Origin: Candidatus Nanoarchaeia archaeon
GTDB lineage: Archaea > Nanobdellota > Nanobdellia > SCGC-AAA011-G17 > JAFCDX01
Reading direction: 5' to 3'
Assembly (NCBI GenBank): GCA_028716945.1
Contig: JAQUOT010000001.1
Span: 187,927 to 251,926 of the forward strand
Length of the DNA stretch: 64,000 bases
The notes below the pieces were generated by a model. The model had not been told where the DNA came from and did not search any database. It worked only from the letters and a program-made list of their open reading frames with translations. The position numbers were made by a program, and so were the translations under genes. The number at the start of each line of letters is the position of its first letter. Positions within the stretch are counted from its first letter, which is position 1. Shown here one piece after another: positions 1 through 37,846 of the stretch.

Positions 1-1146
1 GTGCACAAAAATTCCACTATACGGATTAAAATTTATAATTTGACTATAATAATAATTTCCAGAATTATCACCTGCCTCATCAACCCAAGTTTCTTTTTTT
101 AATAATCTTTTTAATTCTAAAGAAGTAATTGTAGGTTTGATATTAAATAATGATTTTCCAAGAGTTAATTTATTTTGAGGAGTTTCAATTAAATAAGAAT
201 CATCACAAATTTTGTTTCCTGTTTGAACATTATCAAGAGTAGAAATACATTCTACTTTTTTAGTTAAGGTTATACTATTTGTTCCTATATTTAATACTAA
301 TTTTGAATCTATATCTTGTATTGTTGTGGGTACATTTGGTGTAAAAGCTATATTTGAATATTCATCTCCAACACTTAAAATTTTAATATTTATTTTTTTA
401 GTATTCCAATTTACTTTTGTTATCATAAATTTATCCATTTTATTTTCATGACAAGATTCGAAACAAACTCCTACAGGTGTTGAAATAGCTACTCCTTTAC
501 CAGAAGATTCTAATAATGCAGTACAAGAAGTTAGACTTGAAATTTTACAAGCACCATTTTCACAACCATTTGGACAAGTATAATAATCCCAAGCAACATT
601 TCCTCCAGAACAATAAGCTTCTGCTAAACGATTTGGATATAAAATTTGATCAGAACAACCATCATAATAAACTGCTCCCAAAGTATCTTTAACATTTCCA
701 GCAGTAAAATAATCTTTTTCATTATCAGAATCTACACAAGTATTAGCTGCAGATGTTGATAATGTAACACATTTTCCTCCAACACATTTTTTATTATATT
801 GAGAACAATCTACTTCAGCAAAATTAGAATTAATACTTTTACAATACCCTTCTATTAAAATATTGGTGTTATCTCCATATTTACAATAATCCCATCCAGT
901 AGTAGACGTAAATAAATTAGTTCCCAAACCATTTTTTGCATCGATTTTACCTTGAACATCTAAATTCCAATAACTAGAACTAGAACCATCTGATTTTATA
1001 CATGAATAAGTAGAAGCTTCTAAAGTTCTTGTATTATCTGAATTTGTTCCAAATAAATTAGTTAAAAAATTATTTATTGAAAAAGCAAATACAATTGGAG
1101 TTACTAAGATTAATAATAAAGAAAGTACAATCAAGCTCTTTTTCAT
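1..1146 (-). CDS. Giant Cys-rich secreted surface protein, N-terminal part (gene continues past window start); paralogue of 1187..3832
   Basis: Minus-strand ATG at 1144-1146. First about 61 codons and upstream 36 bp are identical to the 1187..3832 gene. Translation MKKSLIVLSLLLILVTPIVFAFS... is a signal peptide, followed by a 6-Cys domain (...CVDSDNEKDY...YYDGC...LAEAYCSGG...YTCPNGCENGAC) at about 558-760. Confidence 0.5.
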   Translation of the reverse strand, partial: MKKSLIVLSLLLILVTPIVFAFSINNFLTNLFGTNSDNTRTLEASTYSCIKSDGSSSSYWNLDVQGKIDAKNGLGTNLFTSTTGWDYCKYGDNTNILIEGYCKSINSNFAEVDCSQYNKKCVGGKCVTLSTSAANTCVDSDNEKDYFTAGNVKDTLGAVYYDGCSDQILYPNRLAEAYCSGGNVAWDYYTCPNGCENGACKISSLTSCTALLESSGKGVAISTPVGVCFESCHENKMDKFMITKVNWNTKKINIKILSVGDEYSNIAFTPNVPTTIQDIDSKLVLNIGTNSITLTKKVECISTLDNVQTGNKICDDSYLIETPQNKLTLGKSLFNIKPTITSLELKRLLKKETWVDEAGDNSGNYYYSQIINFNPYSGIFVH

Positions 1147-1186: not shown

Positions 1187-3832
1187 TTATTTTTTAGAAG
1201 AAAGTTCAAGTCTAGCTTTTTGTTGGTTTCTTATTTTTTTGAAAATATAATCTAATTGGTTTTTCTTCCAACCTTTTTTAACCAAAGCATCTTTAATATC
1301 AATTTCAGATTTTTTATCTGCCAATTGTTTTTTAACATATGCTTCTAATTTTATTTCTTGTTCTTTATTTGAAATTGGAGATCCTCTTTTTATTATATAA
1401 TATTGCCAATATATGAAAACTCCAACAATTACAACTACTACAAATAATATTATTAAAATATACCATGGGAAACTTGATCCACAATCGGCCTTACACCATC
1501 CCTCTTCTAATGGATGACATACTCCATCTCCACATTGATATTCTGGTTCTTCAGTTATTTCTGTTTTAGTTGTAATAGAACATTGTTCTGAAGTAGAACT
1601 TAACTGATTTCCTGTGGTTGTATCATAAGTATAAACTGTTCTTGTTCCTATTCCATCTCCTTCGGGATCTATACAATCTCCTAATCTCTGTTCGTAAGAA
1701 CTTTGACTAGCCATAACAGAAGTTATTATACTACAAATTCCACCAATACAACATTTAACTGAATCTGATGAAGCTACAGAAATAAATTGTCCGGTTGTTC
1801 CAGTACATTGTTGATTTTCTAAACATATTTGTCCATCTAAATTATTACAAGTATAATCAGAATAATCTATTGTAAGTTCTTTACATTGCCCAGTACTAAG
1901 ATCTCTTGATTGACAAGACACACATTCTTCATCTTCTAAAGTACAAGTAGTAGTACAACTTGGATCACATGCATCTCCTTTCCCATCATTATCACAATCT
2001 GCTTGATCCTCATTATAAATGTATATGCAATTATCTTCATCATCACAAATTCCATCTTCATCATAATCATCTTCACATTCTAAGCAAGCAGCATTAGATA
2101 CACAAGCACTATCTGCACAATCTGTTAATCCATTACAATTATTATCAATATTATCAGTACAACTAGTTTCTGATTGAGCACAAGAAGAAGGGGTACATCC
2201 TCCATTATTACATCCATACCCATATGTTTGACAATCAACAACTAAAGTCCATACATTATTTTTACATTCTTGTACATTAGTTCCTAAACATCTTAACTGA
2301 TTTTCTTGACAAACAGCAGCTATACAACTTGTAGCAGATGTACAACAATTTAAACAATCACTTACTCCAGTTATAAGACTAGAACATGTTTGTCCAGATG
2401 TACAACAAACACCATTTTTTTGAGCACAAGTTTGTGAATTAGAAGAAGTAGTACCACATTGATTAGCAGTGCCTGCACCACCACAAGTTTCAGCAGCACT
2501 AACATTACAAGTTAATGTCCCTGTTTTAGATAGATTAGTTCCACAATTTGTTGAAACAATTTTATTTCCACAAAACGAACTTAGGTCTGGAGTAAATATA
2601 ATGGGAGTACATCCACTTCCTCCTACGCCTGCAGCACCACTAACAGTACAACTTTTAATTAATGAAAATTGATTAGTACATGCAGCATCTGTACAATATT
2701 GTTGCCCACCTATACCGGGATTAAAAACTTGACAAATAGACCAAGTTGAACAAGTTGATGTTGTACAAACTCCTTTAGATCCACTTCCTCCTGAAGAAGA
2801 AATATTTGAACTATTAATTTTTTTACAAAGGGTACCAATATCTCCTATATCTCCAACATTACATTTTGAATTTGGTACATATGTTGTACAATTATAAGTA
2901 GTATTTACCCACCTTGTTCCTCCACAATAATAAAAATTTCCAGAGGTACATAAATATTTTCCCCTCATACCAGCAGTACAATTTATTCCATTAAAGTTAA
3001 TTTGAGAAGTATCTCCACAAGTTTTAGCAGTAAATACTACTTTATTTGACAAAGCTCCATTCCATACCCAAACAACATATTTTTGTCCAGGTTCTAAAAC
3101 ATAACTTGGAGATAAGGGTTGTACATTTCCAGCTACATCTCCAGAACCGGTTAATTTTATATTAAACTCATTAAGTGTAAAGGTTTCGGTTGCTTTTGAT
3201 GTATCTTTTACTTCTATAGCATAATAGGTTGATGTAGAAGGATCTGCATTACTTATTTCTCCTTTAAAAACATCAATACTATAAGTTCCACTACTAGGAA
3301 CACTTCCACCACTAAAAGTTATATTTACTTTTGATTTAGTTCCTTCACAAGAAGTTGTAATAGTTGAAGATAAAGTTACGGGGGTTATTATACTTCCTGC
3401 TCCACCCGAAGTTGTGGGTGTAACACATTTTCCACTGCTACATATTTTACCATAATCAGAACAATCTATTTTTCCAATATAAAATGAATTTACAGTATTT
3501 CCACAATACCATTCTCCTAAAAGAGTACCTGTAGTATCTTGTCCAATATCTTTAAGACAATAATCAGAACCTACTACTTGGGTTGTAGAGCTAGAACCAA
3601 TCGCAGAAGTAGTTAATGTAATTTTACTAATTTTACCTTGGATATTATAATTCCAATAACTAGAACTAGAACCATCTGATTTTATACATGAATAAGTAGA
3701 AGCTTCTAAAGTTCTTGTATTATCTGAATTTGTTCCAAATAAATTAGTTAAAAAATTATTTATTGAAAAAGCAAATACAATTGGAGTTACTAAGATTAAT
3801 AATAAAGAAAGTACAATCAAGCTCTTTTTCAT
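1187..3832 (-). CDS. Giant Cys-rich surface protein (signal peptide, many Cys-rich and beta-rich repeats, C-terminal TM helix, short basic cytoplasmic tail)
   Basis: ORF track 1187..3877. I moved the start to Met-16 (ATG 3830-3832) because everything upstream is the conserved promoter shared with the copy at 1146. C-terminus has the TM helix FPWYILIILFVVVVIVGVFIYW plus a lysine-rich tail. Confidence 0.6.
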   Translation of the reverse strand: MKKSLIVLSLLLILVTPIVFAFSINNFLTNLFGTNSDNTRTLEASTYSCIKSDGSSSSYWNYNIQGKISKITLTTSAIGSSSTTQVVGSDYCLKDIGQDTTGTLLGEWYCGNTVNSFYIGKIDCSDYGKICSSGKCVTPTTSGGAGSIITPVTLSSTITTSCEGTKSKVNITFSGGSVPSSGTYSIDVFKGEISNADPSTSTYYAIEVKDTSKATETFTLNEFNIKLTGSGDVAGNVQPLSPSYVLEPGQKYVVWVWNGALSNKVVFTAKTCGDTSQINFNGINCTAGMRGKYLCTSGNFYYCGGTRWVNTTYNCTTYVPNSKCNVGDIGDIGTLCKKINSSNISSSGGSGSKGVCTTSTCSTWSICQVFNPGIGGQQYCTDAACTNQFSLIKSCTVSGAAGVGGSGCTPIIFTPDLSSFCGNKIVSTNCGTNLSKTGTLTCNVSAAETCGGAGTANQCGTTSSNSQTCAQKNGVCCTSGQTCSSLITGVSDCLNCCTSATSCIAAVCQENQLRCLGTNVQECKNNVWTLVVDCQTYGYGCNNGGCTPSSCAQSETSCTDNIDNNCNGLTDCADSACVSNAACLECEDDYDEDGICDDEDNCIYIYNEDQADCDNDGKGDACDPSCTTTCTLEDEECVSCQSRDLSTGQCKELTIDYSDYTCNNLDGQICLENQQCTGTTGQFISVASSDSVKCCIGGICSIITSVMASQSSYEQRLGDCIDPEGDGIGTRTVYTYDTTTGNQLSSTSEQCSITTKTEITEEPEYQCGDGVCHPLEEGWCKADCGSSFPWYILIILFVVVVIVGVFIYWQYYIIKRGSPISNKEQEIKLEAYVKKQLADKKSEIDIKDALVKKGWKKNQLDYIFKKIRNQQKARLELSSKK

Positions 3833-3868
3833 ATAAATAATATTAAAATTTATATATTTAAATCTTTT
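3647..3868 (-). repeat. About 220-bp direct repeat, copy B (promoter and signal-peptide cassette)
   Basis: Identical to 963..1182. Confidence 0.85.
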
Positions 3869-3873
3869 TATTT

Positions 3874-5895
3874 TCAAAATAAAGGTTTTATTCTGGTTTC
3901 TTTCAAAGCTTCCTTAATTTGTTCCTCTTTCCACCCTTTTATTCTTAAAGAACTTATAATTTGTTCTTTTGGAATACCTTGATTTATTTTAACTTGAATA
4001 TAATTTGATAATCTTGCTAAACTTAATTCTTTTTCAATATCGGATTGTGGCCAACCTGCTCTTTCTAATTCCTCTTTTATATTCTTCAAAGGAACTTTTG
4101 CATTTAAAGATTTTTGAATATATTCTTTCATTTTTTCAACATTAACAGGTCTTACTTTTATTGTAGGTTCTTGTTTTATTTCTTTTACAAAAGTTTGAGG
4201 AGCAACTTCTTTTGGTTGAACTATCGGACTTGATTCTTCAACAACTGCTCTTTTTCTTTGTACATAAGTATAAATTATAATTACTAAAATCATAATGAAA
4301 ACTATTCCAGAAATTAAACTTACTCCAATAAGCACCTTATTTGATTTATTTTCAAGATTAGTGTTAGTACCTAAATTAACATTTGTAGTTGTTCCTGCTA
4401 AAACAGTAGAAGTACAAGAAATAGAACAGCAAATTCCTGATCCCGAATGTAATAAAGTAGAACTACTACAAGTTTGATTACTTCCACAAACATAACCATT
4501 TTCTAAAGAGCAAGAACAATCTGAATCTCCTCCAACGCAAGATATAGAACAACCATCATTTATTCCACAAGTAGAACCAGTACAAGATTCATTAATTGCA
4601 GGTCTTCCTGTTAAAGTTCCACAATTATTTTCATCAATACAAGTTCTTGTTCTTACATTATTAACACAAGAAGTCCAATTTGTACAATTCCAAGTTTCAG
4701 AACAGGAAGAAGTAGAATTTGTAATATTAATTAAGAATAAATTACCAACAACATACAATCCTAAACTATCATTAGCACTAAATCTTATTAAATTGGTTCC
4801 AGTCCAGTTTGCTTTTGGAACAAATTCTGCTTCATCATTAGAATTTATAAAAATAGAAATAGAATTATTTCCGGTGAAATTATAAATTAATTTTTGTCCA
4901 TCTGGTTCTGAGAAATAATCCTCTAATTCTAAACTATCATTGGTATTTTTTCTCCAAGACATATTATCAAAATTATCTTTTAATATAGGAGGAGAATTTA
5001 ACATATCAATACTGCTTGAATTTACATAAGTTCCTTTAATCGTATCGTTAGCACTAATAGTACATGTCCATTCATCTATATGACTTTCAGTTATCTGTAC
5101 AGAAATATTACAAGATTTTCCATTTACCCAAGAATCTCCAGAACAAGATACATCTCCAGATTTAAATGGACTAGCAAAATTAGTTTCATTCCACAAAATG
5201 TATTTAACATTAACAGTACTACTATCCGTATCTTTAACAATAGAAGAACAATTTACATAATCTTTTACTCTAAACTTATTTGAACCAGTTAAATTAGTAA
5301 AAGAAACATCTGTTATTGTAGGAGGATTAGTTGTTACAGGAGCAGAAACTGTAAAACTTTTTGTATCTGAAATTAAAACATCTGCACTGTAATTTAAAAT
5401 GAATTCTAAAGTATAAGTTCCAGCACTTAAGGCAGATAATCCAGAAAAAGCAGATATAGGAGTACTTACAGTAACTTCAGAAAGCGTTGAAAATGCTCTT
5501 CCAGGTTGTTCAGGATTTTCCCAAGCCCAATCAGGACTATCATGACTTCCATCTTTAAAAATTTGACCATCAATACAATTTTTTGGATTTGCATTTGAGT
5601 TAGTTAAAAAATTTTCTAAAGTTAGAGTACTACGTTGTATAACTTGGTCTCCAGAATCTTTTATACCTATATAAACATTTGAAGACCCATTACAAGGAAT
5701 AACATCGCCTGCTAAAAATTTTATTGAAATATCTCCAGTTAATGATTGCCCTGCAGTTATAGTATCTAAATCAATATTATCTTTAACAACGTTTCCAGTA
5801 ATAGATGGCTTCATTAACATAAAAACTAAAAATGAGAATACAAATATTGCAAATATAAAAACGCTCAATTCTCTATCTTTTTTAATATGTACCAC
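3874..5895 (-). CDS. Large surface protein: signal anchor, Ig/PKD-like beta domains, Cys-rich stalk, TM helix, cytoplasmic tail with repeated K-G-W-x-x-Q motif
   Basis: 673-aa ORF. N-terminal hydrophobic segment; C-terminal Cys-rich region (CSETWNCTNWTSC...), then TM helix VLIGVSLISGIVFIMILVIIIY and a tail carrying ...RAGWPQSDIEKEL... and ...RIKGWKEEQIKEAL... Confidence 0.55.
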   Translation of the reverse strand: MVHIKKDRELSVFIFAIFVFSFLVFMLMKPSITGNVVKDNIDLDTITAGQSLTGDISIKFLAGDVIPCNGSSNVYIGIKDSGDQVIQRSTLTLENFLTNSNANPKNCIDGQIFKDGSHDSPDWAWENPEQPGRAFSTLSEVTVSTPISAFSGLSALSAGTYTLEFILNYSADVLISDTKSFTVSAPVTTNPPTITDVSFTNLTGSNKFRVKDYVNCSSIVKDTDSSTVNVKYILWNETNFASPFKSGDVSCSGDSWVNGKSCNISVQITESHIDEWTCTISANDTIKGTYVNSSSIDMLNSPPILKDNFDNMSWRKNTNDSLELEDYFSEPDGQKLIYNFTGNNSISIFINSNDEAEFVPKANWTGTNLIRFSANDSLGLYVVGNLFLINITNSTSSCSETWNCTNWTSCVNNVRTRTCIDENNCGTLTGRPAINESCTGSTCGINDGCSISCVGGDSDCSCSLENGYVCGSNQTCSSSTLLHSGSGICCSISCTSTVLAGTTTNVNLGTNTNLENKSNKVLIGVSLISGIVFIMILVIIIYTYVQRKRAVVEESSPIVQPKEVAPQTFVKEIKQEPTIKVRPVNVEKMKEYIQKSLNAKVPLKNIKEELERAGWPQSDIEKELSLARLSNYIQVKINQGIPKEQIISSLRIKGWKEEQIKEALKETRIKPLF

Positions 5896-6805: not shown

Positions 6806-7282
6806 TTAAACCTTTCGTTTCTCTTTTATATTTAACAAATCCCCTATTTTTAAAGTACCATCTTTTAAATTTAAACTAGGTTTATGGGTTTCAGGATTGA
6901 CATAATATGCCTTAAAAGTGTCTATCAATTTTATACTTAATATTTTCTCTATATTTTTAGCCATTCTAAAAGTAGGTACTAATTTATTGGATTCTAAATT
7001 TCTAATAGTAATAATTCTATCATACATTTTATTTGCTAAATCTTCTTCTGTCCAGTTTAATTTTAATCTAGCATTTTTAATTCTTGAAGAGAAATCAGGA
7101 ACAATCATTTCATTTTCTTCTTCTTTTTGTAATTCCAGAATTTTTTCTTCTATTTCTTTTGGTTTTATTTCAACAGCTTTTCCAAGAGCAATACAATTAG
7201 AACAAGCTTTAATTAAAACTCCTTCAAAAATAGCTTCTCTTGTTTCGCATTCCTTTTTATTACAAACTGCACAATTATTCAT
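6806..7282 (-). CDS. mbf1: Archaeal multiprotein bridging factor 1 (Zn-ribbon plus XRE-type HTH)
   Basis: N-terminal C-x2-C...C-x2-C (CAVCNKKEC...CSNC), then an HTH segment IKNARLKLNWTEEDLANKM. Confidence 0.5.
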   Translation of the reverse strand: MNNCAVCNKKECETREAIFEGVLIKACSNCIALGKAVEIKPKEIEEKILELQKEEENEMIVPDFSSRIKNARLKLNWTEEDLANKMYDRIITIRNLESNKLVPTFRMAKNIEKILSIKLIDTFKAYYVNPETHKPSLNLKDGTLKIGDLLNIKEKRKV

Positions 7283-7949
7283 TTTTTACAAGAGCAAATA
7301 CTTCTCCAACGCTTGTAAAACCTTCTTTTTTATCTTTATTATTTACTATTATTGTTGGTGCTTTTGTAATATTATAATAATTCTTTACTAAATTCAAAGT
7401 TGGCTCATCAAATTGTCTATCTATAGAAAATATCTTAATATTAATATCTTGTCTATTTGCTAAATTATCTAAAACATAACCCTGCTTTATTGAATTATCC
7501 TCTTCCAAATCATAAAAATATAAAATAATATTTTGTTTATTATCACATTTTTTATTATAATCTATGAAAAGAGAATAAGCCCTTATTTCAAGTAAAAAAT
7601 ATTGTTCTCTTAATGAATCATATTCTTTTTCTTTTAATATATTTTTATCATCATATTCCATTAACCTCTGTCCTAAATCATATAAATTTCCAGAACTTGA
7701 AGAAAGTCTTTCTTTTATTAAATTACAATTTCCTATATCTAAGGATTCTAAGAATTGTTGCTCAACAAAAATGCTGATTATATCTAAATTATTTTGGTTT
7801 AAATTATAAGCAACATCACTTGTTCTTAAATCATCCCAAATTTTTGCAGTATAAAATCCTAATAGAAATATAGCTACAGTAATTACTAGCGCTGTTATGA
7901 AAATATCTTTTCTTATCTTTGGCATTTTACCATTTCCTCTTAGCCCCAA
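7275..7949 (-). CDS. Membrane-anchored hypothetical protein (N-terminal TM), last gene of the glycosyltransferase cluster
   Basis: 224 aa with a single N-terminal hydrophobic helix. Overlaps both neighbouring genes. Confidence 0.3.
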   Translation of the reverse strand: MGLRGNGKMPKIRKDIFITALVITVAIFLLGFYTAKIWDDLRTSDVAYNLNQNNLDIISIFVEQQFLESLDIGNCNLIKERLSSSSGNLYDLGQRLMEYDDKNILKEKEYDSLREQYFLLEIRAYSLFIDYNKKCDNKQNIILYFYDLEEDNSIKQGYVLDNLANRQDINIKIFSIDRQFDEPTLNLVKNYYNITKAPTIIVNNKDKKEGFTSVGEVFALVKNE

Positions 7950-9162
7950 AAGCCTCTAAAACAAAGGCATTCATCCATTGCAGACTCCTTAACATAGGAT
8001 ATAACAATAAATATATAAGGGTAATGAAATGGAATTTCCACCTCTGATTAAAGTATTTATGGGCATAGATATAGATATAAAAACCAAATATAAAACTAGC
8101 AATTACAGGAAACCATATTCTTATATCTAAGCTTAAAATAAAATCTTTTACAGATGGCCATTCTATTATAAAATCAAATATTCCAAATCCCAACGTAATT
8201 ATCTTTGTTAAGGTTGTATAAACATATCTTAAAAATTGATAAGCAAATAATAAAAATGAAAATAAAACCATTAACATTGTTGTAACATTCAAAGGTAATT
8301 GGAACAACCCAATTAAACCATAATTTTTGTTAAAGAACATTTTTTTATATTTCCAGTTGTTTGTGATAAAACCTCTGAACCATCTTACTCTTTGTTTCCA
8401 GAAAGCCCTTATATTCAAAGGTCCATTTGTATAATTAATACTCCTTGGTTCTATAATTACATTATATTTATTATACCTCAATTTTAATGCAACTTCTAAG
8501 TCTTCTGTTAGATTGTTTTTGTCAAAACCCCCTAATTTTTTAATTAAATCTGTTCTGTAAACCGTCATAACTCCATGAGTCATGTGTAATGCTCCGATTC
8601 TAGATATTAATTTTCTAACAAAACTAGATAGAATATATTCTAATCTTTGTATTCTACCTAAATAGTTTATATCATTATTTATTAAAACAGAACTAATTAC
8701 CGCACCAATCTCCGGATCTGAGAAATGATTTACAATTAATTTCAAAGAATTTTTATCTACAAAAGAATCTGAATCAACTCTTGCAAAAAATTCAGTATCA
8801 ATTTGTTGCAAGGCAGCATTCAATGTTCCTGCTGCATTTCCACTATTGATTTTGTTTTGAATTAATTTAATATTTTTATGTTTTTTACAATATTCTTTAA
8901 TAATTAAAGGAGTATTATCTGTAGAAGCATCATCTGCTACAATTATTTTTAATTTATCTTTCGGATAATCCAGATTAAGTATAGAATCTAAGGTTTTTGC
9001 TATATTTTTTTCTTCATTATATGCAGGAACGACTACAGTAACTTTTGGAATTTCTTTTAATGGCTGCGGTTCTTTTGGTTCTCCTAAACCAACTATAATT
9101 AACCAAAAGATAGATACATATAGTGAAATGAAACACAATATCCATATATATATTTCAAACAT
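7927..9162 (-). CDS. Family-2 glycosyltransferase, processive type (QxxRW motif) with C-terminal TM helices
   Basis: VVVPAYNEE...DDASTDNT (GT-A fold, DxD), RVDSDS, and QRVRWFRG (Q-x-x-R-W, hallmark of processive beta-glycan synthases), followed by multiple TM helices. Confidence 0.65.
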   Translation of the reverse strand: MFEIYIWILCFISLYVSIFWLIIVGLGEPKEPQPLKEIPKVTVVVPAYNEEKNIAKTLDSILNLDYPKDKLKIIVADDASTDNTPLIIKEYCKKHKNIKLIQNKINSGNAAGTLNAALQQIDTEFFARVDSDSFVDKNSLKLIVNHFSDPEIGAVISSVLINNDINYLGRIQRLEYILSSFVRKLISRIGALHMTHGVMTVYRTDLIKKLGGFDKNNLTEDLEVALKLRYNKYNVIIEPRSINYTNGPLNIRAFWKQRVRWFRGFITNNWKYKKMFFNKNYGLIGLFQLPLNVTTMLMVLFSFLLFAYQFLRYVYTTLTKIITLGFGIFDFIIEWPSVKDFILSLDIRIWFPVIASFIFGFYIYIYAHKYFNQRWKFHFITLIYLLLYPMLRSLQWMNAFVLEAFGAKRKW

Positions 9163-9178
9163 TTTAACCCCCTGAATA

Positions 9179-10642
9179 TTAACAAACTAATTTGTAAACC
9201 TGTAAATTTTTTTCAAAGCAATCTGTATCAAACTTCTTACTATCTATATTGTATAATTTTTTAACCTTTTCTGATAAAAAGATATATTTTATGTTATTTT
9301 CTTTCATTTTTGAAATGGTTCTCTCTCCTGAATTTGAACTAAATAAAATTCCTGCGTCTAACATCCTCTTCTCCGGATTTGGTGCTAATAAGAAATTTGT
9401 ATCAAAAAAGTTTTTCTTGCCTGAAAAATAATTAATCAAATTTCCTTCATAAATAGTACCAATGACTATATCATTTTTATCCTGAGAATCTTGTTTTATC
9501 CATTGCAAAGATTCAATTTCTATATTACTAGGAACCTGGCTTGCAGTGTTTTTTGCCATGGTAAATGAAGGGTAAACTGAAAATAATACTAATAAAATTA
9601 CAAATATACTTAAAAGTAATTTATTCCAATGTGCTACTTTTGTTAATTTTAGATATTTAAAAAAATTATAGATGGTTAATGCAGACAAAATTGAAGCAGA
9701 TAATCCTATAAAAACTAAAGCTGTATAAAAATTAATCATTTTCAACGAGAGCAAAATTAGATTGGTTATTAATAATGAAGATATTAAAAATATTGCTTTC
9801 TTTTTGTATTTTGTAATTCCTTTATAAATAGTTATAAATCCAAATATTAAAGGAATGTAACCTAAATGATACATTATAGAAAGGATATTTATTTGTTTAA
9901 AAGAAGCCACAGATAATGAGCTAGGCAAATTGTTCCATAATACACTTATTCCATAACTTAACAAAGAATCTTTATAAATTAATAAATTTGTTAGTAAAGT
10001 AATAATTAAAAAAGATAATATCAAGATTATTTCATTTTTATTTAATTCAGAATCTTCTGCATAAGAAAAAACTAAATAAATTATAAAAAATAAAATTACT
10101 AGAATAGAGATTGGACTTAATAAAGCCAAAATGAGTGAGGATAATAAAAATAGAGAAAAGTATGTTTTTTTATCAAGGTTTAAAATACAATAAATCATAA
10201 AAAATATTAAAGGAAATGCAATGCAATACACAGAAACCTTGTTTAATGTTTCTCTAATTGCTAAAGGGACAAAACCCACCATGAATGCAGAAATTAATGC
10301 AGATCTTTCATCGTTTATTATTTGTTTTGATATTAAATAAGCAAGTATTACTAATAAAGACATAAAAAATTGTAAGATTATTTTATCTGCCCAAGGAATA
10401 AATGAAATCGCAGCTAAAAAATATGAAAATAGGGGTGAATTATTTACAGGCCTTCCTGAATAACTCAGTTCATCATAAATCATGGGTTTTAAATTTTCCT
10501 TGACATAATCTGCTTGTCTTAAATTGGCATAAGAAGTATCATCTGAAAATGAATTTTCTGGGGTGGATAAAGAAAAGTTCAATCTAAATAAAAATACAAC
10601 CAAAAACAAAACCAACAAAATTATTTTATATATTTTATTCAT
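9179..10642 (-). CDS. Multi-TM GT-C-like glycosyltransferase (ArnT/PMT/AglB-like architecture)
   Basis: 487 aa with about 11 predicted TM helices plus a C-terminal soluble domain, adjacent to the GT2. Homology is not verifiable here. Confidence 0.35.
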   Translation of the reverse strand: MNKIYKIILLVLFLVVFLFRLNFSLSTPENSFSDDTSYANLRQADYVKENLKPMIYDELSYSGRPVNNSPLFSYFLAAISFIPWADKIILQFFMSLLVILAYLISKQIINDERSALISAFMVGFVPLAIRETLNKVSVYCIAFPLIFFMIYCILNLDKKTYFSLFLLSSLILALLSPISILVILFFIIYLVFSYAEDSELNKNEIILILSFLIITLLTNLLIYKDSLLSYGISVLWNNLPSSLSVASFKQINILSIMYHLGYIPLIFGFITIYKGITKYKKKAIFLISSLLITNLILLSLKMINFYTALVFIGLSASILSALTIYNFFKYLKLTKVAHWNKLLLSIFVILLVLFSVYPSFTMAKNTASQVPSNIEIESLQWIKQDSQDKNDIVIGTIYEGNLINYFSGKKNFFDTNFLLAPNPEKRMLDAGILFSSNSGERTISKMKENNIKYIFLSEKVKKLYNIDSKKFDTDCFEKNLQVYKLVC

Positions 10643-11216: not shown

Positions 11217-11570
11217 TTAATTCAAATATATTGGTTTCTTATCTTTGTCTGGTGTACCTCTAGGATTTTTTGGAGGTTCTTGAGAATGACCAACATAAAA
11301 TCTTAATAGAACAGTTAATGCCAACAGTTCTTCCTGTTGTACATTCATATAATCACGAGGTTTATCTTTCACAGCCTCGAATAGATCATAAAAACAATAC
11401 CACATCTCATCCCATAAAACTCTTCCTCGTTCAACTGCTTCTTTCCAAGTTTGAGGATGTTCATTATACAACAATTCTCCTTTATGTCTAAGGTGGTTAT
11501 TCCAATCAAGTTCATAAACCTTTTTACTTAATGCTTCAATTCTACGTTCTAATTCAATTACTTGATTCAT
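11217..11570 (-). CDS. Hypothetical Trp-rich protein (orphan)
   Basis: 117-aa ORF flanked by two about 150-bp intergenic regions. Codon usage is noticeably less AT-biased than neighbours. Confidence 0.3.
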   Translation of the reverse strand: MNQVIELERRIEALSKKVYELDWNNHLRHKGELLYNEHPQTWKEAVERGRVLWDEMWYCFYDLFEAVKDKPRDYMNVQQEELLALTVLLRFYVGHSQEPPKNPRGTPDKDKKPIYLN

Positions 11571-11721: not shown

Positions 11722-12090
11722 TTACTCTAACCCTTGGTATTCTAAAGATTGTTTTTCGCTTAAACAAGCACCATCAAAACATCCTTCTTCACAATAAACT
11801 ATCATTGTTTGGAAATTAAAAGAATTTGTCGAATCACAATTATACTCTTTTAATCTATTTGCATCTACGCAATAATCTGTTCTTTCACGCAGATTACAAT
11901 CGTCTCCTCTTACTGAAACAGTTCCTTTTAGATTAATACTTCCTTGGTCTGTATCTTTACAAGATTTATCACAACCAACAAGAACATTACTAGTTGTTGT
12001 AAATTGAGTTACTCCCAAAGTTAATAAAAGAATTACTGCTATAAGTAATAAAGCAGATAATAAAACTTCTTTATTAAATTTCTTTGCCAT
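11722..12090 (-). CDS. Small membrane-anchored 6-Cys protein, paralogue 1 of 5 (CxDTDxG ... TDYC ... EYxC ... CxxGCxDGAC)
   Basis: N-terminal hydrophobic anchor, then CKDTDQG...TDYC...KEYNC...CEEGCFDGAC. Confidence 0.55.
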   Translation of the reverse strand: MAKKFNKEVLLSALLLIAVILLLTLGVTQFTTTSNVLVGCDKSCKDTDQGSINLKGTVSVRGDDCNLRERTDYCVDANRLKEYNCDSTNSFNFQTMIVYCEEGCFDGACLSEKQSLEYQGLE

Positions 12091-12091
12091 T

Positions 12092-12487
12092 TTATTTTAT
12101 GCAAGCTCCATCTTTACAACCTTTTTCACAAATAACCAATTTATCATTATATTCACTATAAGTAAAATCTTGAGAGTTAGAACTTTCTGGATCTGATCCA
12201 CAGAAATATTCTTTTACGGCAGAATATTTATTTTCTTCATTTGGTCCAACCTGTACATAAGCACAATAATCGGTTTTTGCTTCAAAAGCATAGCGTCCTT
12301 TGCTTACCGCAGTTACTGTACCTTTAACAAATTGATTATATCCTCCATCTGTATCATTACAACTTCTTTTTAGAAGAACGTTTCCAGTTGTAAAATTTAT
12401 AAAGCTTAATATAAAAAATGCGCAAACAGATACTATTAAAATTAGAATAATATAATCCCTAACATCCACTTCTTTTTTCTTTTTCAT
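12092..12487 (-). CDS. Small membrane-anchored 6-Cys protein, paralogue 2
   Basis: CNDTDGG...KTDYC...KEYFC...CEKGCKDGAC. Starts 1 nt after paralogue 1 ends. Confidence 0.55.
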   Translation of the reverse strand: MKKKKEVDVRDYIILILIVSVCAFFILSFINFTTGNVLLKRSCNDTDGGYNQFVKGTVTAVSKGRYAFEAKTDYCAYVQVGPNEENKYSAVKEYFCGSDPESSNSQDFTYSEYNDKLVICEKGCKDGACIK

Positions 12488-12561
12488 ATCTTATTTATAC
12501 ATTTAATTATTTATAAAGATTTCTATATAAATTAAAAAAATAAAAAATAAAAAATTTTAAT

Positions 12562-12891
12562 TTATTGTAAGCATGCTCCGTTTTGACAGCCATTTGCACA
12601 ATAAACTGAAGGATCTCTGTTATATCCGCTTGCATCTGCCACATTACAATTAAATTCTACTAATGTCTTTCCTGTTGAATCATCCATAGAACAATAATCT
12701 GTTTGTGGGTCAAAAGCAGTTCCTCCAGAATCAGTACCTGTTACAGTACCTTGCATGTAAATACTTCCACCATCAGTATCTTGACAAGAAACTTTTATAA
12801 CTTTTCCTGTTGTTAAAATACCTGATGCTAAAAGCACTGCTAAAACGAGCAAAACTACTAATCCGATTATAGTTTTGTCTTTTGTATCCAT
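12562..12891 (-). CDS. Small membrane-anchored 6-Cys protein, paralogue 3
   Basis: CQDTDGG...QTDYC...VEFNC...CANGCQNGAC. Confidence 0.55.
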   Translation of the reverse strand: MDTKDKTIIGLVVLLVLAVLLASGILTTGKVIKVSCQDTDGGSIYMQGTVTGTDSGGTAFDPQTDYCSMDDSTGKTLVEFNCNVADASGYNRDPSVYCANGCQNGACLQ

Positions 12892-12931
12892 AATTTAATT
12901 AAGAACAATCTATATTTAAATGTTTCTAAAC

Positions 12932-13267
12932 TTATTCTATGCAAGCGCCGTCTTTACAACCCTTTTCACAAACAACTAATTCAGATTCCCAATTATTTGG
13001 AGTAAGCAAATTACAGTTATATTCTTTTAATTCCTTTGTATTTTCTAAAGAACAATAGTCTGTTTCTTCAAATTGGGCATTGTAATCAGTATATCCTGTT
13101 ACTATTCCTTTTACATAAATACTTCCACTATCTGTATCTTCACAATGTGCTTTAAAACTAAATCCAGTAACTTTCTCAAAAAATCCTGTTGCAAAAAATA
13201 ATAAATATAAAGACAGTATTACAAAAATTACCAATAATTTTCTTGAAAAACCTTCAAATAATTTCAT
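12932..13267 (-). CDS. Small membrane-anchored 6-Cys protein, paralogue 4
   Basis: ORF track 12932..13309. Start moved to MKLFEGF (ATG 13265-13267) to remove the overlap with paralogue 5. CEDTDSG...ETDYC...KEYNC...CEKGCKDGAC. Confidence 0.5.
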   Translation of the reverse strand: MKLFEGFSRKLLVIFVILSLYLLFFATGFFEKVTGFSFKAHCEDTDSGSIYVKGIVTGYTDYNAQFEETDYCSLENTKELKEYNCNLLTPNNWESELVVCEKGCKDGACIE

Positions 13268-13281
13268 TTTGAAATAAAAAA

Positions 13282-13650
13282 TTATCTCTCGCAAGCCCCG
13301 TTCTTGCAACCATATTCACAAACAATAAATTTATAGGAATATGCGTTTTTGTCTGTTTCTTCTGGGTCAATATCATGCAAACAATAATATTCTTTTAAAA
13401 CATCGGTTTTTTCAGGATTATCTTCATAATATACACAATAGTCTACTTCATTAATCTGTATTTGAGAAGGATATTGGTGTCCTGAAAGCTTTCCTCTAGC
13501 AAATTCATTATCTCCACTATCAGTATCATAACAATAGCCTGCACGCATACTTTGCCCAGTAGTATAATTTATAGTATTATTTAGCACAATTAAAACTGCT
13601 AAAACAACTAAGATTGCAGAACCTATCACCACTTTATCTCTATTATCCAT
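13282..13650 (-). CDS. Small membrane-anchored 6-Cys protein, paralogue 5
   Basis: CYDTDSG...VDYC...KEYYC...CEYGCKNGAC. Confidence 0.55.
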   Translation of the reverse strand: MDNRDKVVIGSAILVVLAVLIVLNNTINYTTGQSMRAGYCYDTDSGDNEFARGKLSGHQYPSQIQINEVDYCVYYEDNPEKTDVLKEYYCLHDIDPEETDKNAYSYKFIVCEYGCKNGACER

Positions 13651-13690
13651 AATAAATATTAAATTTAATGAATATTTAAACTTTTTGTTT

Positions 13691-18163: not shown

Positions 18164-18676
18164 ATGCAAAATAAAAAAGGTGCAATTGAACTTTCTATGA
18201 CCACTATTATAGTTATTATTCTTGGAGTCACTTTATTGAGTTTAGGATTAATGTTTATTAAAGGAACATTTGGAAACATAACTGATATTACAGACAAAAC
18301 TTTTGATCAAGCTGATGATATAATAAAAGATTATATGGTAACTGGAACAACCAAAATGTACATTCTTGATTCAAACGTAGCAATGAAAGCAGGAACTATA
18401 AATACAATATATGTGGGTATTAAAAATCAACTAGGAAGAGATGATGAATTTTATTTGAAAGCAAAACCTGCAAATGATAAAAGCGATGTAGGTTGGTTAG
18501 AGCTTGCAACAGAACCACAAACTATAGAAGCTGGAAGTTATGCTACAATTGCTTTTTTCCTTAAAGTTCCTAAAAAAACGATTCCTGGAGAAACATATAT
18601 TTATTCTATAGAATCATATGCAAAGAGTCAAACAAAACCTTATGCTAATCAGCTTTTAACAGTTATAACAGAATAA
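18164..18676 (+). CDS. Archaeal type-IV-pilin-like protein (class III signal peptide)
   Basis: MQNKKGAIELSMTTIIVIILGVTLLSLGL: a K-G/A-I-E-L-S prepilin-peptidase-type site followed by a hydrophobic helix. Confidence 0.4.
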   Translation: MQNKKGAIELSMTTIIVIILGVTLLSLGLMFIKGTFGNITDITDKTFDQADDIIKDYMVTGTTKMYILDSNVAMKAGTINTIYVGIKNQLGRDDEFYLKAKPANDKSDVGWLELATEPQTIEAGSYATIAFFLKVPKKTIPGETYIYSIESYAKSQTKPYANQLLTVITE

Positions 18677-32532: not shown

Positions 32533-34542
32533 TTACTTGCCTAATAATTTTTTTGCTTCTGCTAATGATTTTTCTAATTCATCATCTACGCTTTTTTCTC
32601 TAGCAGATTTTTTTGGTGCAGCTTGTGTAGAGAAAGCAGGTAGTTGCCTTGCAGGCATTTGTTTTGGTCTTATTAATTCTGCACTGGGTCTAGGTCTTGT
32701 TGATAAATATTCCTCAAAACTTGGTTTCTTTTTTTTACCAAATTTAGCACCTAAATCTCCTGTAAAATCTTTAAAAGTTTTTCCTTTTTTAACATAATTT
32801 AAATAATAATAAGCTAAAAACATTAATAAAATTATCGCAATAATTATAATAATTATCCAAGGCCATATGCTTCCTTCTTCTGTAGTTGTTGTAGTTTCTT
32901 TTTCTATACAATCGCAACCAATACACTCGTATCCATCATCACAATCATAATCTGTAATACAATCATCACTAGAAGTACACTCTTCGGTTATGTCTGTAGA
33001 TAATTCACAACTACAACCAGCACTACACTCATATCCAACATCGCAACTACCTTCTTCACAAGCATCTCCAGCACTTAAAGAACATTCTCCCGTAGGTTCT
33101 GTTATAGTGGTTGTTCCACAAGTACAAGTTCTAAAATCACAAGTTCCAGTTTCACAAGCTAAATTAGGACCACACTCTACTGAATAATCATTACATAAAC
33201 AAGCATTATCATTTGAACAATCATTATCATAACAATCAACAAAAGTATCATTATCATTATCTATATTATCATTACAAACAGTTTCTATAGAGAGAGTAGC
33301 ATTTCCTCCTGTCTCTTCATTAGTTACTTCTTCTATATCTTCTTCACTTAAAGTAATAGAACTTTCTTTAAATCCTCCTGACAAAGCTATCAAAGCGGAG
33401 GCAGTATCTAAAATTTTATCATTCCAATTATGTTTTTTATTATTATATTTTAGAGTTAACCATTTTGTAGCATTTATGTAAGAGTCTGCATCATCTGGGG
33501 ATTGTATCATAGCTATTGCCCCAATCGAAGTAATATATACATCATCTAACCAAGAACCAGAAGATTTCTGATGTTCTTTCAACCAGTTAGAATAATAATC
33601 ACTTTCTGGAGTTACTAAATATAATAAAGATCTATGTAATGCATTTGTATCTTTATTTTCTTCTAGATAAGGTAAAGTGTTTACTTCTTCTCCGGCAATT
33701 GCTTTTAAAGCCCAAGTAGCATATAAAGTACTTTCATAATCACAAGTTCCTACTCCAGAAGCTATTGCAAAGCAAGCATTTTCTATTGTTAAAGTTGTTT
33801 TTTGTGTTTGTTCATCATGTAACAAATAATCTTCTGTAAAACCCGGTCTAACAATATGATATAATAAAGTAACACGTAAAGATTGATCTCCAACATTTAC
33901 ACAATCTATATCATATTTTTTAAATTTTTTATTCCCTATGGGCCCACATAAACTATCTGCATTTATCCAAGGTTTTGTTGGTCCAACTTCTACAGGTTTT
34001 GCAACAGTAGAACCTTCACAAGTTATTTGACAAGTACCATCTACACTAGAAGTAAATTGTATAATCCAACTACCGGCGGTTGCACCAGAAGCTATTTCCA
34101 TATTTTTAAGCCAGGTTGCAGTTTTATTAATATCTTGACCAGTTTTACCTAAAGCCAACAAAGCCAAAGCAGTATCTTTAACCTTACAAGAAGTTTTTGG
34201 AAAACATCCTCTTACCGAACTTTTATTTAATAATTTTAAAATACCTTGTTTAACCTCCGAATTATACTCTCCAAAGTTATTTATAGCCAATAACGAAAAT
34301 GTTAATTCAGGTATAGGTTTATTCCAAGAAGCATTTTTCATAGAATTTAATAACCAAGCATTCGCAACAGTATAATCTGTAATAGTTCCTTCTTCTGTAG
34401 CATTATCTATATCTTCTGCAAGGCATATAAAACTAGATATTATAAGTAAACTGGCTATTAAACACGTTAATCTTGGTAAACTCATCAAAGCACCTCTAAA
34501 ATAGTTTAATAGTAATATATTTAAAAAACTTTCTATTAGCAT
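32533..34542 (-). CDS. Large surface protein (helical repeat N-domain, Cys-rich acidic stalk, TM helix, long basic cytoplasmic tail)
   Basis: Signal peptide; repeated ...A(L/I)(L/A)AL...G/W segments suggest an alpha/alpha-toroid-like domain; Cys/Asp-rich stalk; TM helix WPWIIIIIIAIILLMFLAYYYL. Confidence 0.4.
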   Translation of the reverse strand: MLIESFLNILLLNYFRGALMSLPRLTCLIASLLIISSFICLAEDIDNATEEGTITDYTVANAWLLNSMKNASWNKPIPELTFSLLAINNFGEYNSEVKQGILKLLNKSSVRGCFPKTSCKVKDTALALLALGKTGQDINKTATWLKNMEIASGATAGSWIIQFTSSVDGTCQITCEGSTVAKPVEVGPTKPWINADSLCGPIGNKKFKKYDIDCVNVGDQSLRVTLLYHIVRPGFTEDYLLHDEQTQKTTLTIENACFAIASGVGTCDYESTLYATWALKAIAGEEVNTLPYLEENKDTNALHRSLLYLVTPESDYYSNWLKEHQKSSGSWLDDVYITSIGAIAMIQSPDDADSYINATKWLTLKYNNKKHNWNDKILDTASALIALSGGFKESSITLSEEDIEEVTNEETGGNATLSIETVCNDNIDNDNDTFVDCYDNDCSNDNACLCNDYSVECGPNLACETGTCDFRTCTCGTTTITEPTGECSLSAGDACEEGSCDVGYECSAGCSCELSTDITEECTSSDDCITDYDCDDGYECIGCDCIEKETTTTTEEGSIWPWIIIIIIAIILLMFLAYYYLNYVKKGKTFKDFTGDLGAKFGKKKKPSFEEYLSTRPRPSAELIRPKQMPARQLPAFSTQAAPKKSAREKSVDDELEKSLAEAKKLLGK

Positions 34543-37309: not shown

Positions 37310-37846
37310 CTAACTCTTCTTTATATTACTACAACAATTATAACAACTAGTATAACTACAACTATTACAAGTTTTAGTACAAGGAGTAGAACAACTAAAA
37401 ATAGCACAATTACTTGCTCCTCCGGAAGTAGGAGCACTTATTAATTTATTTACACAACTAAATGTAATGGTTTTACCAATCCCATCTAAATTTTTTTTAA
37501 CAGCAGGAGAACAAGTTTCAGTATATTTTGCTCCTTTTGCATTTATGTAAGTATAAGGTAAAACACTCCAAGTAATAGCTGCTCCTTTTCTTCCAGTAAC
37601 AGAAGTTAAACAACTAGTTTTACCAGTACAAGTTGCTAATTGTATATTTGAAGCATCAAGACCTTTACAAGTTTTAGAATTTAATGTATTTGAAAATTTA
37701 CAAGTTACTTTTTCACTAATAACATTTGTTGCTTCAAGCGTCCTTAAATTATCTTGAGAATTAAAACTAGATAATATATCAAATAAAAATAATCCTAATA
37801 CTGCAAAAAATAATACAACTAATAAAGTCTTTACCTCTTTTACCAT
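37310..37846 (-). CDS. Small secreted Cys-rich protein driven by the same promoter motif as the giant surface proteins
   Basis: Signal peptide, ...RTLEATN... segment also found in 1187..3832, C-terminal Cys/Ser/Thr-rich tail (CSTPCTKTCNSCSYTSCYNCCS). Promoter motif at 37861..37883. Confidence 0.45.
   Translation of the reverse strand: MVKEVKTLLVVLFFAVLGLFLFDILSSFNSQDNLRTLEATNVISEKVTCKFSNTLNSKTCKGLDASNIQLATCTGKTSCLTSVTGRKGAAITWSVLPYTYINAKGAKYTETCSPAVKKNLDGIGKTITFSCVNKLISAPTSGGASNCAIFSCSTPCTKTCNSCSYTSCYNCCSNIKKS

Follow-up and report, generated by a model that had tools for sequence, protein, structure and literature searches.

A tandem array of five genes for small six-cysteine proteins in a DPANN archaeon belongs to a very common, unnamed family of extracellular modules

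Introduction

Small disulfide-rich extracellular modules with six invariant cysteines and conserved acidic residues and glycines include the LDL-receptor class A (LDLa), EGF-like, and thrombospondin type 3 types, which exported proteins contain either singly or in long tandem series and whose inter-cysteine loops are variable. The DUF4215/Myxococcus cysteine-rich repeat (PF13948) is also a cysteine-rich extracellular repeat, found in prokaryotes. For their part, the apicomplexan 6-Cys (s48/45) proteins display a six-cysteine domain on tethered surface proteins, with both tandem genes and tandem domains. The cells of DPANN archaea are ultra-small, and attachment to other cells is their usual way of life.

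Here we describe five consecutive open reading frames on the minus strand of a DPANN archaeon, at positions 11722 to 13650 of the 64,000-nucleotide stretch of DNA analyzed (the window). Each encodes an N-terminal hydrophobic segment followed by a six-cysteine domain of about 75 aa, which shares with the LDLa, EGF, and thrombospondin modules the features listed above and falls in a comparable size class. Its D-x-D-G-G-x-[ND] stretch recalls Ca2+-binding loops and is a putative site, as judged from sequence only. However, the module is about twice the length of an LDLa or EGF module and is predicted to be an all-beta domain of six strands, and Pfam gave no match to Ldl_recept_a, EGF, or TSP_3, whether for the five proteins or for those with 6 to 15 copies. 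Judged jointly by Pfam CBM_14 match, cysteine spacing, and fold match, it also does not qualify as a CBM14/peritrophin-A domain (e.g., Avr4, PDB 4z4a). The DUF4215 repeat accompanies the module in one small homolog (P0189), C-terminal to it, as a distinct motif of about 40 aa (C-G-N-G-...-C-D-D-G-N-...-D-G-C), and was not detected by Pfam in the window proteins. The likeness to s48/45 is one of analogy only: that domain is about 120 aa long, its proteins carry a GPI anchor instead of an N-terminal hydrophobic segment, the organisms differ, and Pfam s48_45 gave no match in the five proteins, the two domains being unrelated. The six-cysteine module defines a new domain family that is very common, unnamed, and uncharacterized and whose general type is familiar.

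Results and discussion

Gene content of the array

The five minus-strand genes proposed in the first-pass annotation, which was made from the letters of the sequence without database searches, were confirmed as open reading frames, and all matched the family models (E values of 1e-26 to 1e-31 with HMM A3, and 6e-17 to 3e-21 with HMM A4). Also in agreement with that annotation, an N-terminal hydrophobic segment was seen in all five products. The g1 gene (11722-12090, 122 aa; ortholog L007_b) encodes eight cysteines, the extra pair lying in C-x-x-x-C1 and D-D-C, and a C-terminal tail of 13 residues; other genomes carry the same extra pair in their members of orthologous group A. Its start lies 1 nt past the stop of g2 (12092-12487, 131 aa; alignment and ortholog L007_a), whose product contains long insertions within the C2-C3 and C3-C4 loops, an N-F-T-T-G motif, and a seventh cysteine within the hydrophobic segment. 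The product of g3 (12562-12891, 109 aa) is the copy nearest the family consensus in the alignment, and AlphaFold modeling was carried out on its ectodomain (nt 12565-12816). The g4 product (12932-13267, 111 aa), assigned by the tree to orthologous group A, bears the juxtamembrane sequence FFxTGxFxxVTG. Finally, g5 (13282-13650, 122 aa; HMM E value of 1e-26 and ortholog L006_1) encodes a hydrophobic segment, an N-Y-T-T-G motif, and the six-cysteine domain, its ectodomain spanning nt 13285-13566.

Two starts were considered for g4: the ATG at 13267 (MKLFEGF...) and a TTG at 13309, which would give a product of 125 aa (12932-13309) and a 28-nt overlap with g5. The ATG is probably the true start, since it agrees with ortholog L006_2. 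With this start, the intergenic gaps across the array are 1, 74, 40, and 14 nt, so that of the earlier estimate of 1 to 70 nt the lower value held and the upper one was slightly exceeded.

Conserved scaffold and predicted fold

Alignment of the five copies showed invariant columns at C-x-D-T-D-x-G, G, D-Y-C, E, C, and C-x-x-G-C-x-x-G-A-C, the same columns as those of the scaffold noted previously; the threonine of the T-T-G motif just past the hydrophobic segment was likewise invariant. The six cysteines ascribed to each protein were indeed present in all five, although g1 has eight and g2 a seventh. The description as diverged paralogues also stood. The domain is about 75 aa long, and pairwise identities ranged from 30 to 47%. 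When the comparison was extended to 60 diverse copies, the six cysteines and one glycine remained invariant, and D13, D15, G17, G23, D40, E54, and G76 were at least 90% conserved. Loop lengths varied from 23 to 42 residues for C1-C2, 5 to 32 for C2-C3, and 8 to 32 for C3-C4, with C5-x4-C6 being fixed.

All six cysteines were kept in 866 of 877 instances. The module is predicted to contain three disulfides, of which one pair is probably C4-C6, given that natural variants lacking C4 and C6 together, with C5 kept, were found in four independent instances. A syntenic thioredoxin-fold membrane protein, considered as possible disulfide machinery, was discarded, as it has no CxxC in the lineage of the array. 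The family alignment also contains a D-[ST]-D-G-G-x-[ND] stretch together with a conserved distal D and E, and the near-invariant acidic cluster (the D-x-D after the first cysteine, the D of D-Y-C, and the E of E-Y-x-C) is a possible site for binding a metal, for example Ca2+.

The AlphaFold models of the g3 ectodomain reached pLDDT values of 89.0 and 91.5 with alignments of 16 and 60 sequences, respectively, with identical strand patterns corresponding to an all-beta domain of six strands. Comparison of the modeled ectodomain with PDB folds yielded no match to a solved structure.

A widespread family of exported repeat proteins

The family was defined by HMMs A3 and A4, the latter built for the most part on repeats of large proteins that are unrelated. 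An exhaustive HMM search retrieved 6,380 representative clusters at an E value of ≤1e-3 and 1,904 at ≤1e-10, and all named members were DPANN archaea. Thus, the domain is not peculiar to the five genes but a very abundant, DPANN-wide extracellular repeat. Word-index protein searches were insensitive to the domain (16 and 11 matches, versus 6,380 by exhaustive HMM), and a related-locus search from the five-sequence alignment, a narrow pattern, returned only three loci. The top HMM matches were mostly large exported proteins with 3 to 23 tandem repeats. Among 910 instances in 150 proteins, the median length was 75 aa and 76% had exactly six cysteines; 128 of the 150 large proteins carried an N-terminal export signal, and a C-terminal hydrophobic anchor was present in only 3. 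Co-occurring annotations were Dockerin_1, CARDB, InlB B-repeat, S_layer_C, and PEGA, and in one architecture the six-cysteine domain lay at the C terminus of a protein with Peptidase_S8 (subtilase) and Mucin2_WxxW. As judged from these co-domains, the family belongs to an extracellular setting. Small members also form independent tandem arrays elsewhere, with three copies at locus L013 and two each at L014 and L017.

The searches bore out the view that no named family includes the domain. For the five proteins, Pfam returned only noise (E ≥ 0.16) and NCBIfam nothing at E ≤ 10; the repeat was not recognized by Pfam even in proteins with 6 to 15 copies; PDB sequence searches with two profiles gave no match; and PADLOC and PHROGs were likewise empty, hence giving no link to defense or phages. 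A tblastn search with an eight-repeat member against phage and plasmid collections found no match, the literature searched held no description of the module, and the homology searches pointed to no ligand, partner, or activity. Neither the HMM comparisons nor the structure comparisons with PDB, both of a kind suggested in the first-pass annotation, matched a well-characterized family or fold.

A sixth family gene, overlooked previously, lies at the edge of the window (ORF 1-1146, minus strand). Its 5' part (544-1146), recognized by translation and HMM A4 (full E value of 4.5e-19; domain E values of 5.6e-5 and 5.4e-15), belongs to a larger exported protein that the window edge truncates; it begins with a Sec signal peptide of the ordinary type, after which come two domain copies in tandem (nt 766-1014 and 544-753).

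Conservation and selection

The array lies in the conserved order aRF1-array-ScpB-PMT_2 GT-C-PgaC-like GT2, and genomes 69 to 74% identical in aRF1 have three, four, or five copies between aRF1 and ScpB. In the tree, at least three orthologous groups were older than the split of genomes that are only about 70% identical in aRF1, in concordance with the old duplication proposed earlier. The dN/dS comparison among the five copies was uninformative, dS being saturated (0.66 to 2.0), and ortholog pairs were used instead. These gave dN/dS values of 0.18 to 0.42, compared with 0.057 for aRF1 at similar dS; g5 and L006_1 (84% identity) gave 0.18, g2 and L007_a 0.20, and g1 and L007_b 0.19. All scaffold cysteines were retained in the ortholog pairs from sister contigs, so the cysteine patterns, which the first-pass annotation had proposed checking for disruption, were intact. 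The array genes are real and are under purifying selection.

Between orthologs, the C2-C3 and C3-C4 loops showed no more than a slight excess of substitutions. Thus, the diversification claimed for the array is modest, and the combination of these dN/dS values with slight loop enrichment, which is no arms-race signature, weakens the earlier reading of the proteins as toxins or receptor decoys.

Membrane segment and proposed role

All small members have 17 to 22 hydrophobic residues, preceded by a charged N-terminal head and followed by phi-T-G, whereas the ordinary Sec signals seen in the window and in large family members are not as long and terminate at AxA-like sites. The N-terminal segment thus resembles an uncleaved signal anchor rather than a Sec signal, although signal peptidase could cleave at the conserved T-G (T/V/L at -3 and G at -1), in which case the proteins would be released instead of anchored. 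The tether from the membrane segment to the first cysteine is only 5 to 12 residues, which makes a long-reach adhesin role unlikely for the single-module forms.

We favor, with a probability of roughly one-half, the reading that the five are envelope proteins with a signal anchor and a single module, whose role is to bind or organize surface components. In each, a membrane segment at the N terminus would lead through a very short, phi-T-G-bearing stalk to one all-beta extracellular module of about 75 residues, which would serve as a binding or assembly element right at the outer face of the cytoplasmic membrane. Its three length-variable inter-cysteine loops would give each paralogue a specific surface, and its likeliest role would lie in binding or organizing envelope components, whether these are surface glycans or the large repeat proteins. 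In three of six context types, the neighbors are glycan-synthesis genes (PMT_2 GT-C plus PgaC-like GT2, a GT2/GT4 cluster, and nucleotide-sugar enzymes plus PMT), which favors a link to glycans, but glycosylation genes were absent from the other three. The proximity may reflect inherited gene order in compact genomes, given that ScpB interrupts the link between the array and the glycosyltransferases in the window. Because the single-module forms carry the module alone, it is probably this module that constitutes the functional unit, although in the multi-repeat proteins it could act purely as a spacer. A role in host adhesion over long distances is less likely than this envelope role. A more specific version, which we consider doubtful, is that the module represents a new fold for metal-dependent module-to-module docking, cohesin/dockerin-like or cadherin-like, and that the anchored paralogues are cell-side receptors, each tethering a different partner among the giant anchor-less multi-repeat proteins and together forming an envelope or attachment apparatus of the episymbiont.

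The main competing explanation at the level of the module itself, rather unlikely in our judgment, is a passive spacer, that is, a rigid disulfide-stabilized bead for the stalks of giant proteins, the small proteins being low-function by-products, membrane-proximal pillars, or envelope fillers (e.g., S-layer support) with no specific ligand. Most members are indeed long arrays of 3 to 23 copies, as in Ig, PKD, or EGF stalks, conservation is centered on scaffold residues (cysteine, glycine, and acidic), and ortholog substitutions are spread almost evenly. However, it is hard to see what purpose a spacer without cargo would serve, and the anchored forms with one module are nevertheless conserved, with synteny and orthologous groups persisting under purifying selection across about 70% aRF1 identity; arrays of small members recur at independent loci; and the C-terminal fusion to a subtilase occupies the usual place of a binding module. 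If the T-G were cleaved, the proteins could instead be released effectors of about 80 residues, with tandem duplication as the source of their diversity and secretion as toxins, as antimicrobials, or as factors that manipulate the host. They are small, cysteine rich, and tandemly duplicated and evolve 3 to 7 times faster than aRF1, and phi-T-G fits the -3/-1 rule of signal peptidase I. Nevertheless, this alternative appears improbable: dN/dS is well below 1 and the orthologous groups are stable across genera, no immunity, transporter, or maturation genes adjoin the array, the PADLOC and PHROG searches were empty, the same module repeats in structural surface proteins, and the hydrophobic stretches are as long as a transmembrane helix, which sets them apart from the ordinary Sec signals found in this genome.

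Two further readings concern the company that the genes keep and the architecture of their products. The small proteins might be substrates or accessory subunits of the neighboring PMT_2-type GT-C and PgaC-like GT2 enzymes, with the juxtamembrane threonine (often in an N-x-T sequon) being glycosylated or the module acting as a lectin that retains the polymer. We regard this reading as quite unlikely. Similarity to archaeal type IV pilins or minor pilins assembling into a surface fiber is apparent in the short polar head, the hydrophobic helix of about 20 aa, the small beta-rich disulfide-containing domain, and the tandem paralogues. However, a class III signal ([KR]-G/A before the hydrophobic stretch) was found, by regular expression and inspection, in 0 of 19 array members, including the five array proteins, whereas it is present in a pilin-like ORF of the window (18164-18676; KKG/AIELS). 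Pilus ATPase and PilC genes were not adjacent, and within giant Sec-exported proteins the domain recurs as an internal repeat. The pilin hypothesis was thus rejected for lack of the class III signal peptide and is very improbable.

The module is among the commonest building blocks of DPANN exported proteins, with thousands of clusters and up to 23 copies per protein. A Pfam-type model of the family would annotate thousands of "hypothetical" DPANN surface proteins, and should the module be only a structural bead, the gain would lie mainly in annotation. For experiments on the module, the five-gene array is the simplest point of entry, with single ectodomains of about 80 residues, natural variants, and a confidently predicted fold.

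Transcription units

The array had been described as a tandem operon, but its putative signals point elsewhere. Within the array, TATA-like boxes at -29/-30 on the minus strand were found only for g5, g3, and g2: TTTAAATA at 13673-13680, 30 nt upstream of the g5 ATG and a putative promoter of a leaderless g5-g4 unit; TTTAAATA again at 12913-12920, 29 nt upstream of the g3 ATG; and TTTATAAA at 12510-12517, 30 nt upstream of the g2 ATG and a putative promoter of a g2-g1 unit. An oligo-T tract (TTTTTTATTTTTTATTTTTTT, 12534-12554, minus strand), read from the sequence 3' of the g3 stop between g3 and g2, resembles an archaeal terminator and may act as one; a scan for bacterial-type hairpin terminators found none at this tract. 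Given these boxes and the oligo-T tract, three leaderless units (g5-g4, g3, and g2-g1) are probably a better description than a single operon, and tight coupling was observed only for g5-g4 (14 nt) and g2-g1 (1 nt). A bacterial-type promoter and terminator scan of the window gave counts equal to the shuffled expectation, being uninformative for an archaeon, and positional analysis of TATA boxes was used in its place. Across the window, 11 of the 22 TATA-like boxes within 80 nt upstream of genes fell at -25 to -34, the background frequency of such boxes being 0.001 per nt.

Organization and sequence of the array

ORF analysis and alignment confirmed the five paralogues with a hydrophobic N terminus and a six-Cys scaffold described in the first-pass annotation, all on the minus strand: g1 (11722-12090, 122 aa), g2 (12092-12487, 131 aa), g3 (12562-12891, 109 aa), g4 (12932-13309, 125 aa from a TTG start), and g5 (13282-13650, 122 aa). 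With a GC content of about 27%, the window is AT-rich; it belongs to a MAG of Candidatus Nanoarchaeia (Woesearchaeota-type DPANN). NCBI entries PHD81_01060-01080 match four of the five proteins exactly, and PHO49_05000, a partial Nanoarchaeia entry of another MAG, is identical to the fifth. Read from TTG, g4 overlaps g5; ATG 13267 (MKLFEGF...) agrees with the start of the g4 orthologue and is more likely the true start. The genes are tandem and close, as had been noted, but the gaps are 1, 74, 40, and 14 nt rather than 1 to 70 nt. Pairwise identity was 30 to 47%, the invariant positions being C-x-D-T-D-x-G, one Gly, D-Y-C, one Glu, one Cys, C-x-x-G-C-x-x-G-A-C, and the Thr of a T-T-G motif directly after the hydrophobic segment. 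g1 contains eight Cys, and g2 a seventh one within its membrane segment.

A scan for bacterial-type promoters and terminators was uninformative. Four genes, namely g2, g3, g5, and the neighbouring orphan, have an archaeal TATA-like octamer exactly 29 to 30 nt upstream of their ATG codons; window-wide, such boxes peaked at -25 to -34 (11 of 22 boxes; background density, 0.001 per nt). No TATA-like box was found at g4 or g1, which begin 14 nt and 1 nt, respectively, past the preceding stop, and a 21-nt oligo-T tract lies 3' of g3. Instead of the single tandem operon initially proposed, three leaderless transcription units (g5-g4, g3, and g2-g1) would be the likeliest arrangement.

Selection on the array genes

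Orthologues of g5, g4, g2, and g1 were present in two sister contigs (L006 and L007; 95% aRF1 identity). Their dN/dS values were 0.18, 0.42, 0.20, and 0.19, respectively (Nei-Gojobori; dS, 0.35 to 0.57), versus 0.057 for aRF1 from the same contig pair. Thus, the array genes are under purifying selection, yet they evolve 3 to 7 times faster than this housekeeping gene. Among the five paralogues themselves, dS was saturated. Every scaffold Cys was kept in the sister orthologues, with none of the disrupted patterns that had been envisaged there, and the C2-C3 and C3-C4 loops had accumulated only slightly more substitutions (0.22 to 0.27 per site) than the remaining positions (0.15 to 0.17 per site).

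In L006, an insertion in a loop of the g5 orthologue (1779-2171) has brought an additional Cys pair (SENCLDNNPETEC), and the g4 orthologue (2190-2540) has the C-terminal spacing C-x6-C-x4-C, not C-x3-C-x4-C. These two changes, within approximately 5% aRF1 divergence, show that loops are rapidly remodelled while the scaffold stays fixed.

Conserved positions and predicted fold of the module

Across 60 diverse copies of the module, the six Cys and one Gly were invariant, and D13, D15, G17, G23, D40, E54, and G76 (numbered according to the g3 ectodomain) were at least 90% conserved. All six Cys were kept in 866 of 877 full-length instances. The sole recurrent double loss affected C4 and C6, in four different proteins that all retained C5, a pattern that favours a disulfide between C4 and C6 and a C5 that is bonded into the core. 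The length of C5-x4-C6 was fixed; C1-C2 (23 to 42), C2-C3 (5 to 32), and C3-C4 (8 to 32) varied and accommodated paralogue-specific insertions. AlphaFold2 predicted with confidence a compact, all-beta domain comprising six main strands and a hairpin at the C terminus, with pLDDT values of 89.0 and 91.5 from 16- and 60-sequence alignments, respectively, and the same strand pattern in both.

The module matched nothing in Pfam, NCBIfam, PHROGs, PADLOC, or, with two profiles, the PDB sequences. Foldseek placed the model in no well-characterised family, the best E values being 1.9 against PDB and 1.8 against BFVD, nor was a description found in the literature searched. The module is therefore an analogue of LDLa, EGF, CBM14, and the apicomplexan 6-Cys domain, all small disulfide-rich extracellular modules, and belongs to none of these families; it is probably structurally novel.

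Distribution of the family

The domain had been regarded as unrecognised, which holds insofar as no named family matched, but it is not an orphan. When 1.84 billion representative proteins were searched exhaustively by HMM, the yield was 6,380 clusters at an E value of ≤1e-3, 1,904 at ≤1e-10, and 154 at ≤1e-30. The best 150 of the 6,380 were 328 to 3,760 aa long, with 3 to 23 matched stretches each, and contained 910 module instances (median, 75 aa), 76% with exactly six Cys and 79% with C-x-D-[ST]-D. An N-terminal export signal was found in 128 of these 150 proteins and a C-terminal hydrophobic anchor in only 3. The repeat went unrecognised by Pfam in all the large family proteins scanned; the Pfam domains that co-occurred with it were Dockerin_1, CARDB, InlB B-repeat, and S_layer_C. 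Peptidase_S8 and Mucin2_WxxW also occurred with the module, which was then C-terminal, and one member is annotated as a PEGA-domain protein. In the window, the edge-cut ORF 1-1146 (minus strand) encodes an ordinary Sec signal peptide and, behind it, two copies of the module in tandem, as matched by the family HMM (E value of 4.5e-19 with the broader HMM, A4). All the taxon-named members belong to DPANN archaea (Nanoarchaeia/Woesearchaeota, Altiarchaeota, and Micrarchaeota), and a tblastn search of phage and plasmid collections with an 8-repeat member gave no match. The module is a new, uncharacterised domain family of a familiar kind, the disulfide-rich extracellular repeat, abundant in DPANN archaea.

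Small distant members occurred as a singleton within a GT2/GT4 cluster (L011/L012), as three tandem genes adjoining nucleotide-sugar enzymes and a PMT-type GT-C (L013), and as two tandem genes or singletons amid housekeeping genes (L014 to L017). Since tandem small genes recur at independent loci, single-module arrays are a recurrent habit of the family. The association with glycan genes, in three of six context types, is only suggestive.

The conserved locus

Four other Woesearchaeota/Nanoarchaeia assemblies showed the order (ValRS)-aRF1-[three or four small genes]-ScpB-~485-aa membrane protein-GT2-~217-aa TM protein, with all the small genes being family members and aRF1 only 69 to 74% identical to that of the window. 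A neighbour-joining tree revealed at least three orthologous groups older than the splits of these genomes. Group A (g4, L001_1, L002_1, and L008_1) bears the juxtamembrane signature FFxTGxFxWVTGK and usually eight Cys; g5 and g2 form a lineage-specific pair. These stable groups, together with dN/dS values well below 1, weaken the receptor-decoy or toxin role, with its arms-race flavour, suggested at first.

The orphan gene between g1 and ScpB (11217-11570, minus strand, 117 aa; TATA-like box at -30) encodes a cytoplasmic-looking protein with one Cys and no TM segment, had no match in Pfam, NCBIfam, PADLOC, or PHROGs, and is missing at the corresponding position in L001, L002, and L008. Downstream of ScpB lies a conserved minus-strand pair, a 487-aa multi-pass membrane protein (9179-10642) and a PgaC/IcaA/NodC-like processive GT2 synthase (7927-9162). 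The latter is related to processive polysaccharide synthases along its full length, its best NCBIfam match (PgaC/IcaA; E value of 8e-51) falling far below the equivalog cutoff, and the L008 orthologue of the former is a PMT_2-type GT-C glycosyltransferase (E value of 8e-7). The pair suggests a surface polysaccharide or protein-glycosylation module. Also syntenic is a TM-anchored thioredoxin-fold-like protein (7275-7925, minus strand; orthologues at L001 12016-12669, L002 8857-9507, and L008 9846-10505), in which C67 and C127 are invariant and the canonical CxxC is kept only in L001 (C-L-D-C); possibly, it represents an extracytoplasmic redox protein that has degenerated or is atypical.

The N-terminal segment and the probable role of the module

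In the window and at the other loci, the small single-module members begin with a short polar head and 17 to 22 hydrophobic residues, followed by phi-T-G-x-phi located 5 to 25 residues before Cys1. The juxtamembrane motif [ILVFT]-T-G-[NKQRSY]-x-[AVIL] is common to g1-g5, L001, L002, L008, L013, L014, L016, and L017, its Thr lying within an N-x-T sequon in about a third of cases. It differs from the ordinary Sec signals of the same genomes and might serve specifically for cleavage, glycosylation, or sorting.

A signal anchor, with the N terminus inside and the domain outside, is favoured by comparison with the ordinary Sec signals of the window and of the large family proteins, which are shorter and terminate in lipoboxes or AxA-like sites. 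The T-G is also compatible with a peptidase site, at which the N terminus might be cleaved. That the products are cleaved, secreted effectors we consider unlikely. Pilin-like subunits are very improbable: a class III signal was absent from all the small members examined, whereas the 170-aa ORF at 18164-18676 (plus strand) carries a textbook archaeal one, type IV pilin-like (MQNKKG|AIELSMTTIIVIILG). A long-reach form of the adhesin first proposed is unlikely with a stalk of only about ten residues.

The earlier interpretation as a whole was partly supported. With a probability of roughly 0.5, each of g1-g5 would encode one membrane-tethered copy of an envelope module that is widespread in DPANN archaea; the module would itself serve for binding or assembly, with loops that differ between paralogues, and would act at the surface of the membrane on components of the envelope, namely glycans or the large repeat proteins. 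The small proteins consist of the module alone, and for this reason it is probably the functional unit; that it is a passive structural bead seems unlikely, although less so than secretion as effectors. A role as glycosylation substrates or accessories is less probable than either. The module is worth naming and solving, and the present results do not indicate an unusual mechanism.

Other exported Cys-rich proteins of the window

The adjacent minus-strand genes 1187-3877 and 1-1146, both large, exported, and Cys-rich, share an identical N terminus of ~60 to 80 residues (MKKSLIVLSLLLILVTPIVFAFSINNFLTNLFGTNSDNTRTLEASTYSCIKSDGSSSSYWN), which implies that their 5' ends were recently duplicated or recombined. 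Of this pair, the 896-aa protein contains 68 Cys, a C-terminal TM anchor, and a D-rich stretch resembling TSP3 (weak Pfam match). Three further exported Cys-rich ORFs fell outside the family by HMM: 53347-53940 (plus strand; 9 Cys, lipobox-like LFISG|C followed by NTITGEVI) and 32533-34542 (32 Cys) and 37310-37846 (14 Cys), both on the minus strand. The genome appears to depend to a large extent on extracytoplasmic proteins rich in disulfides.
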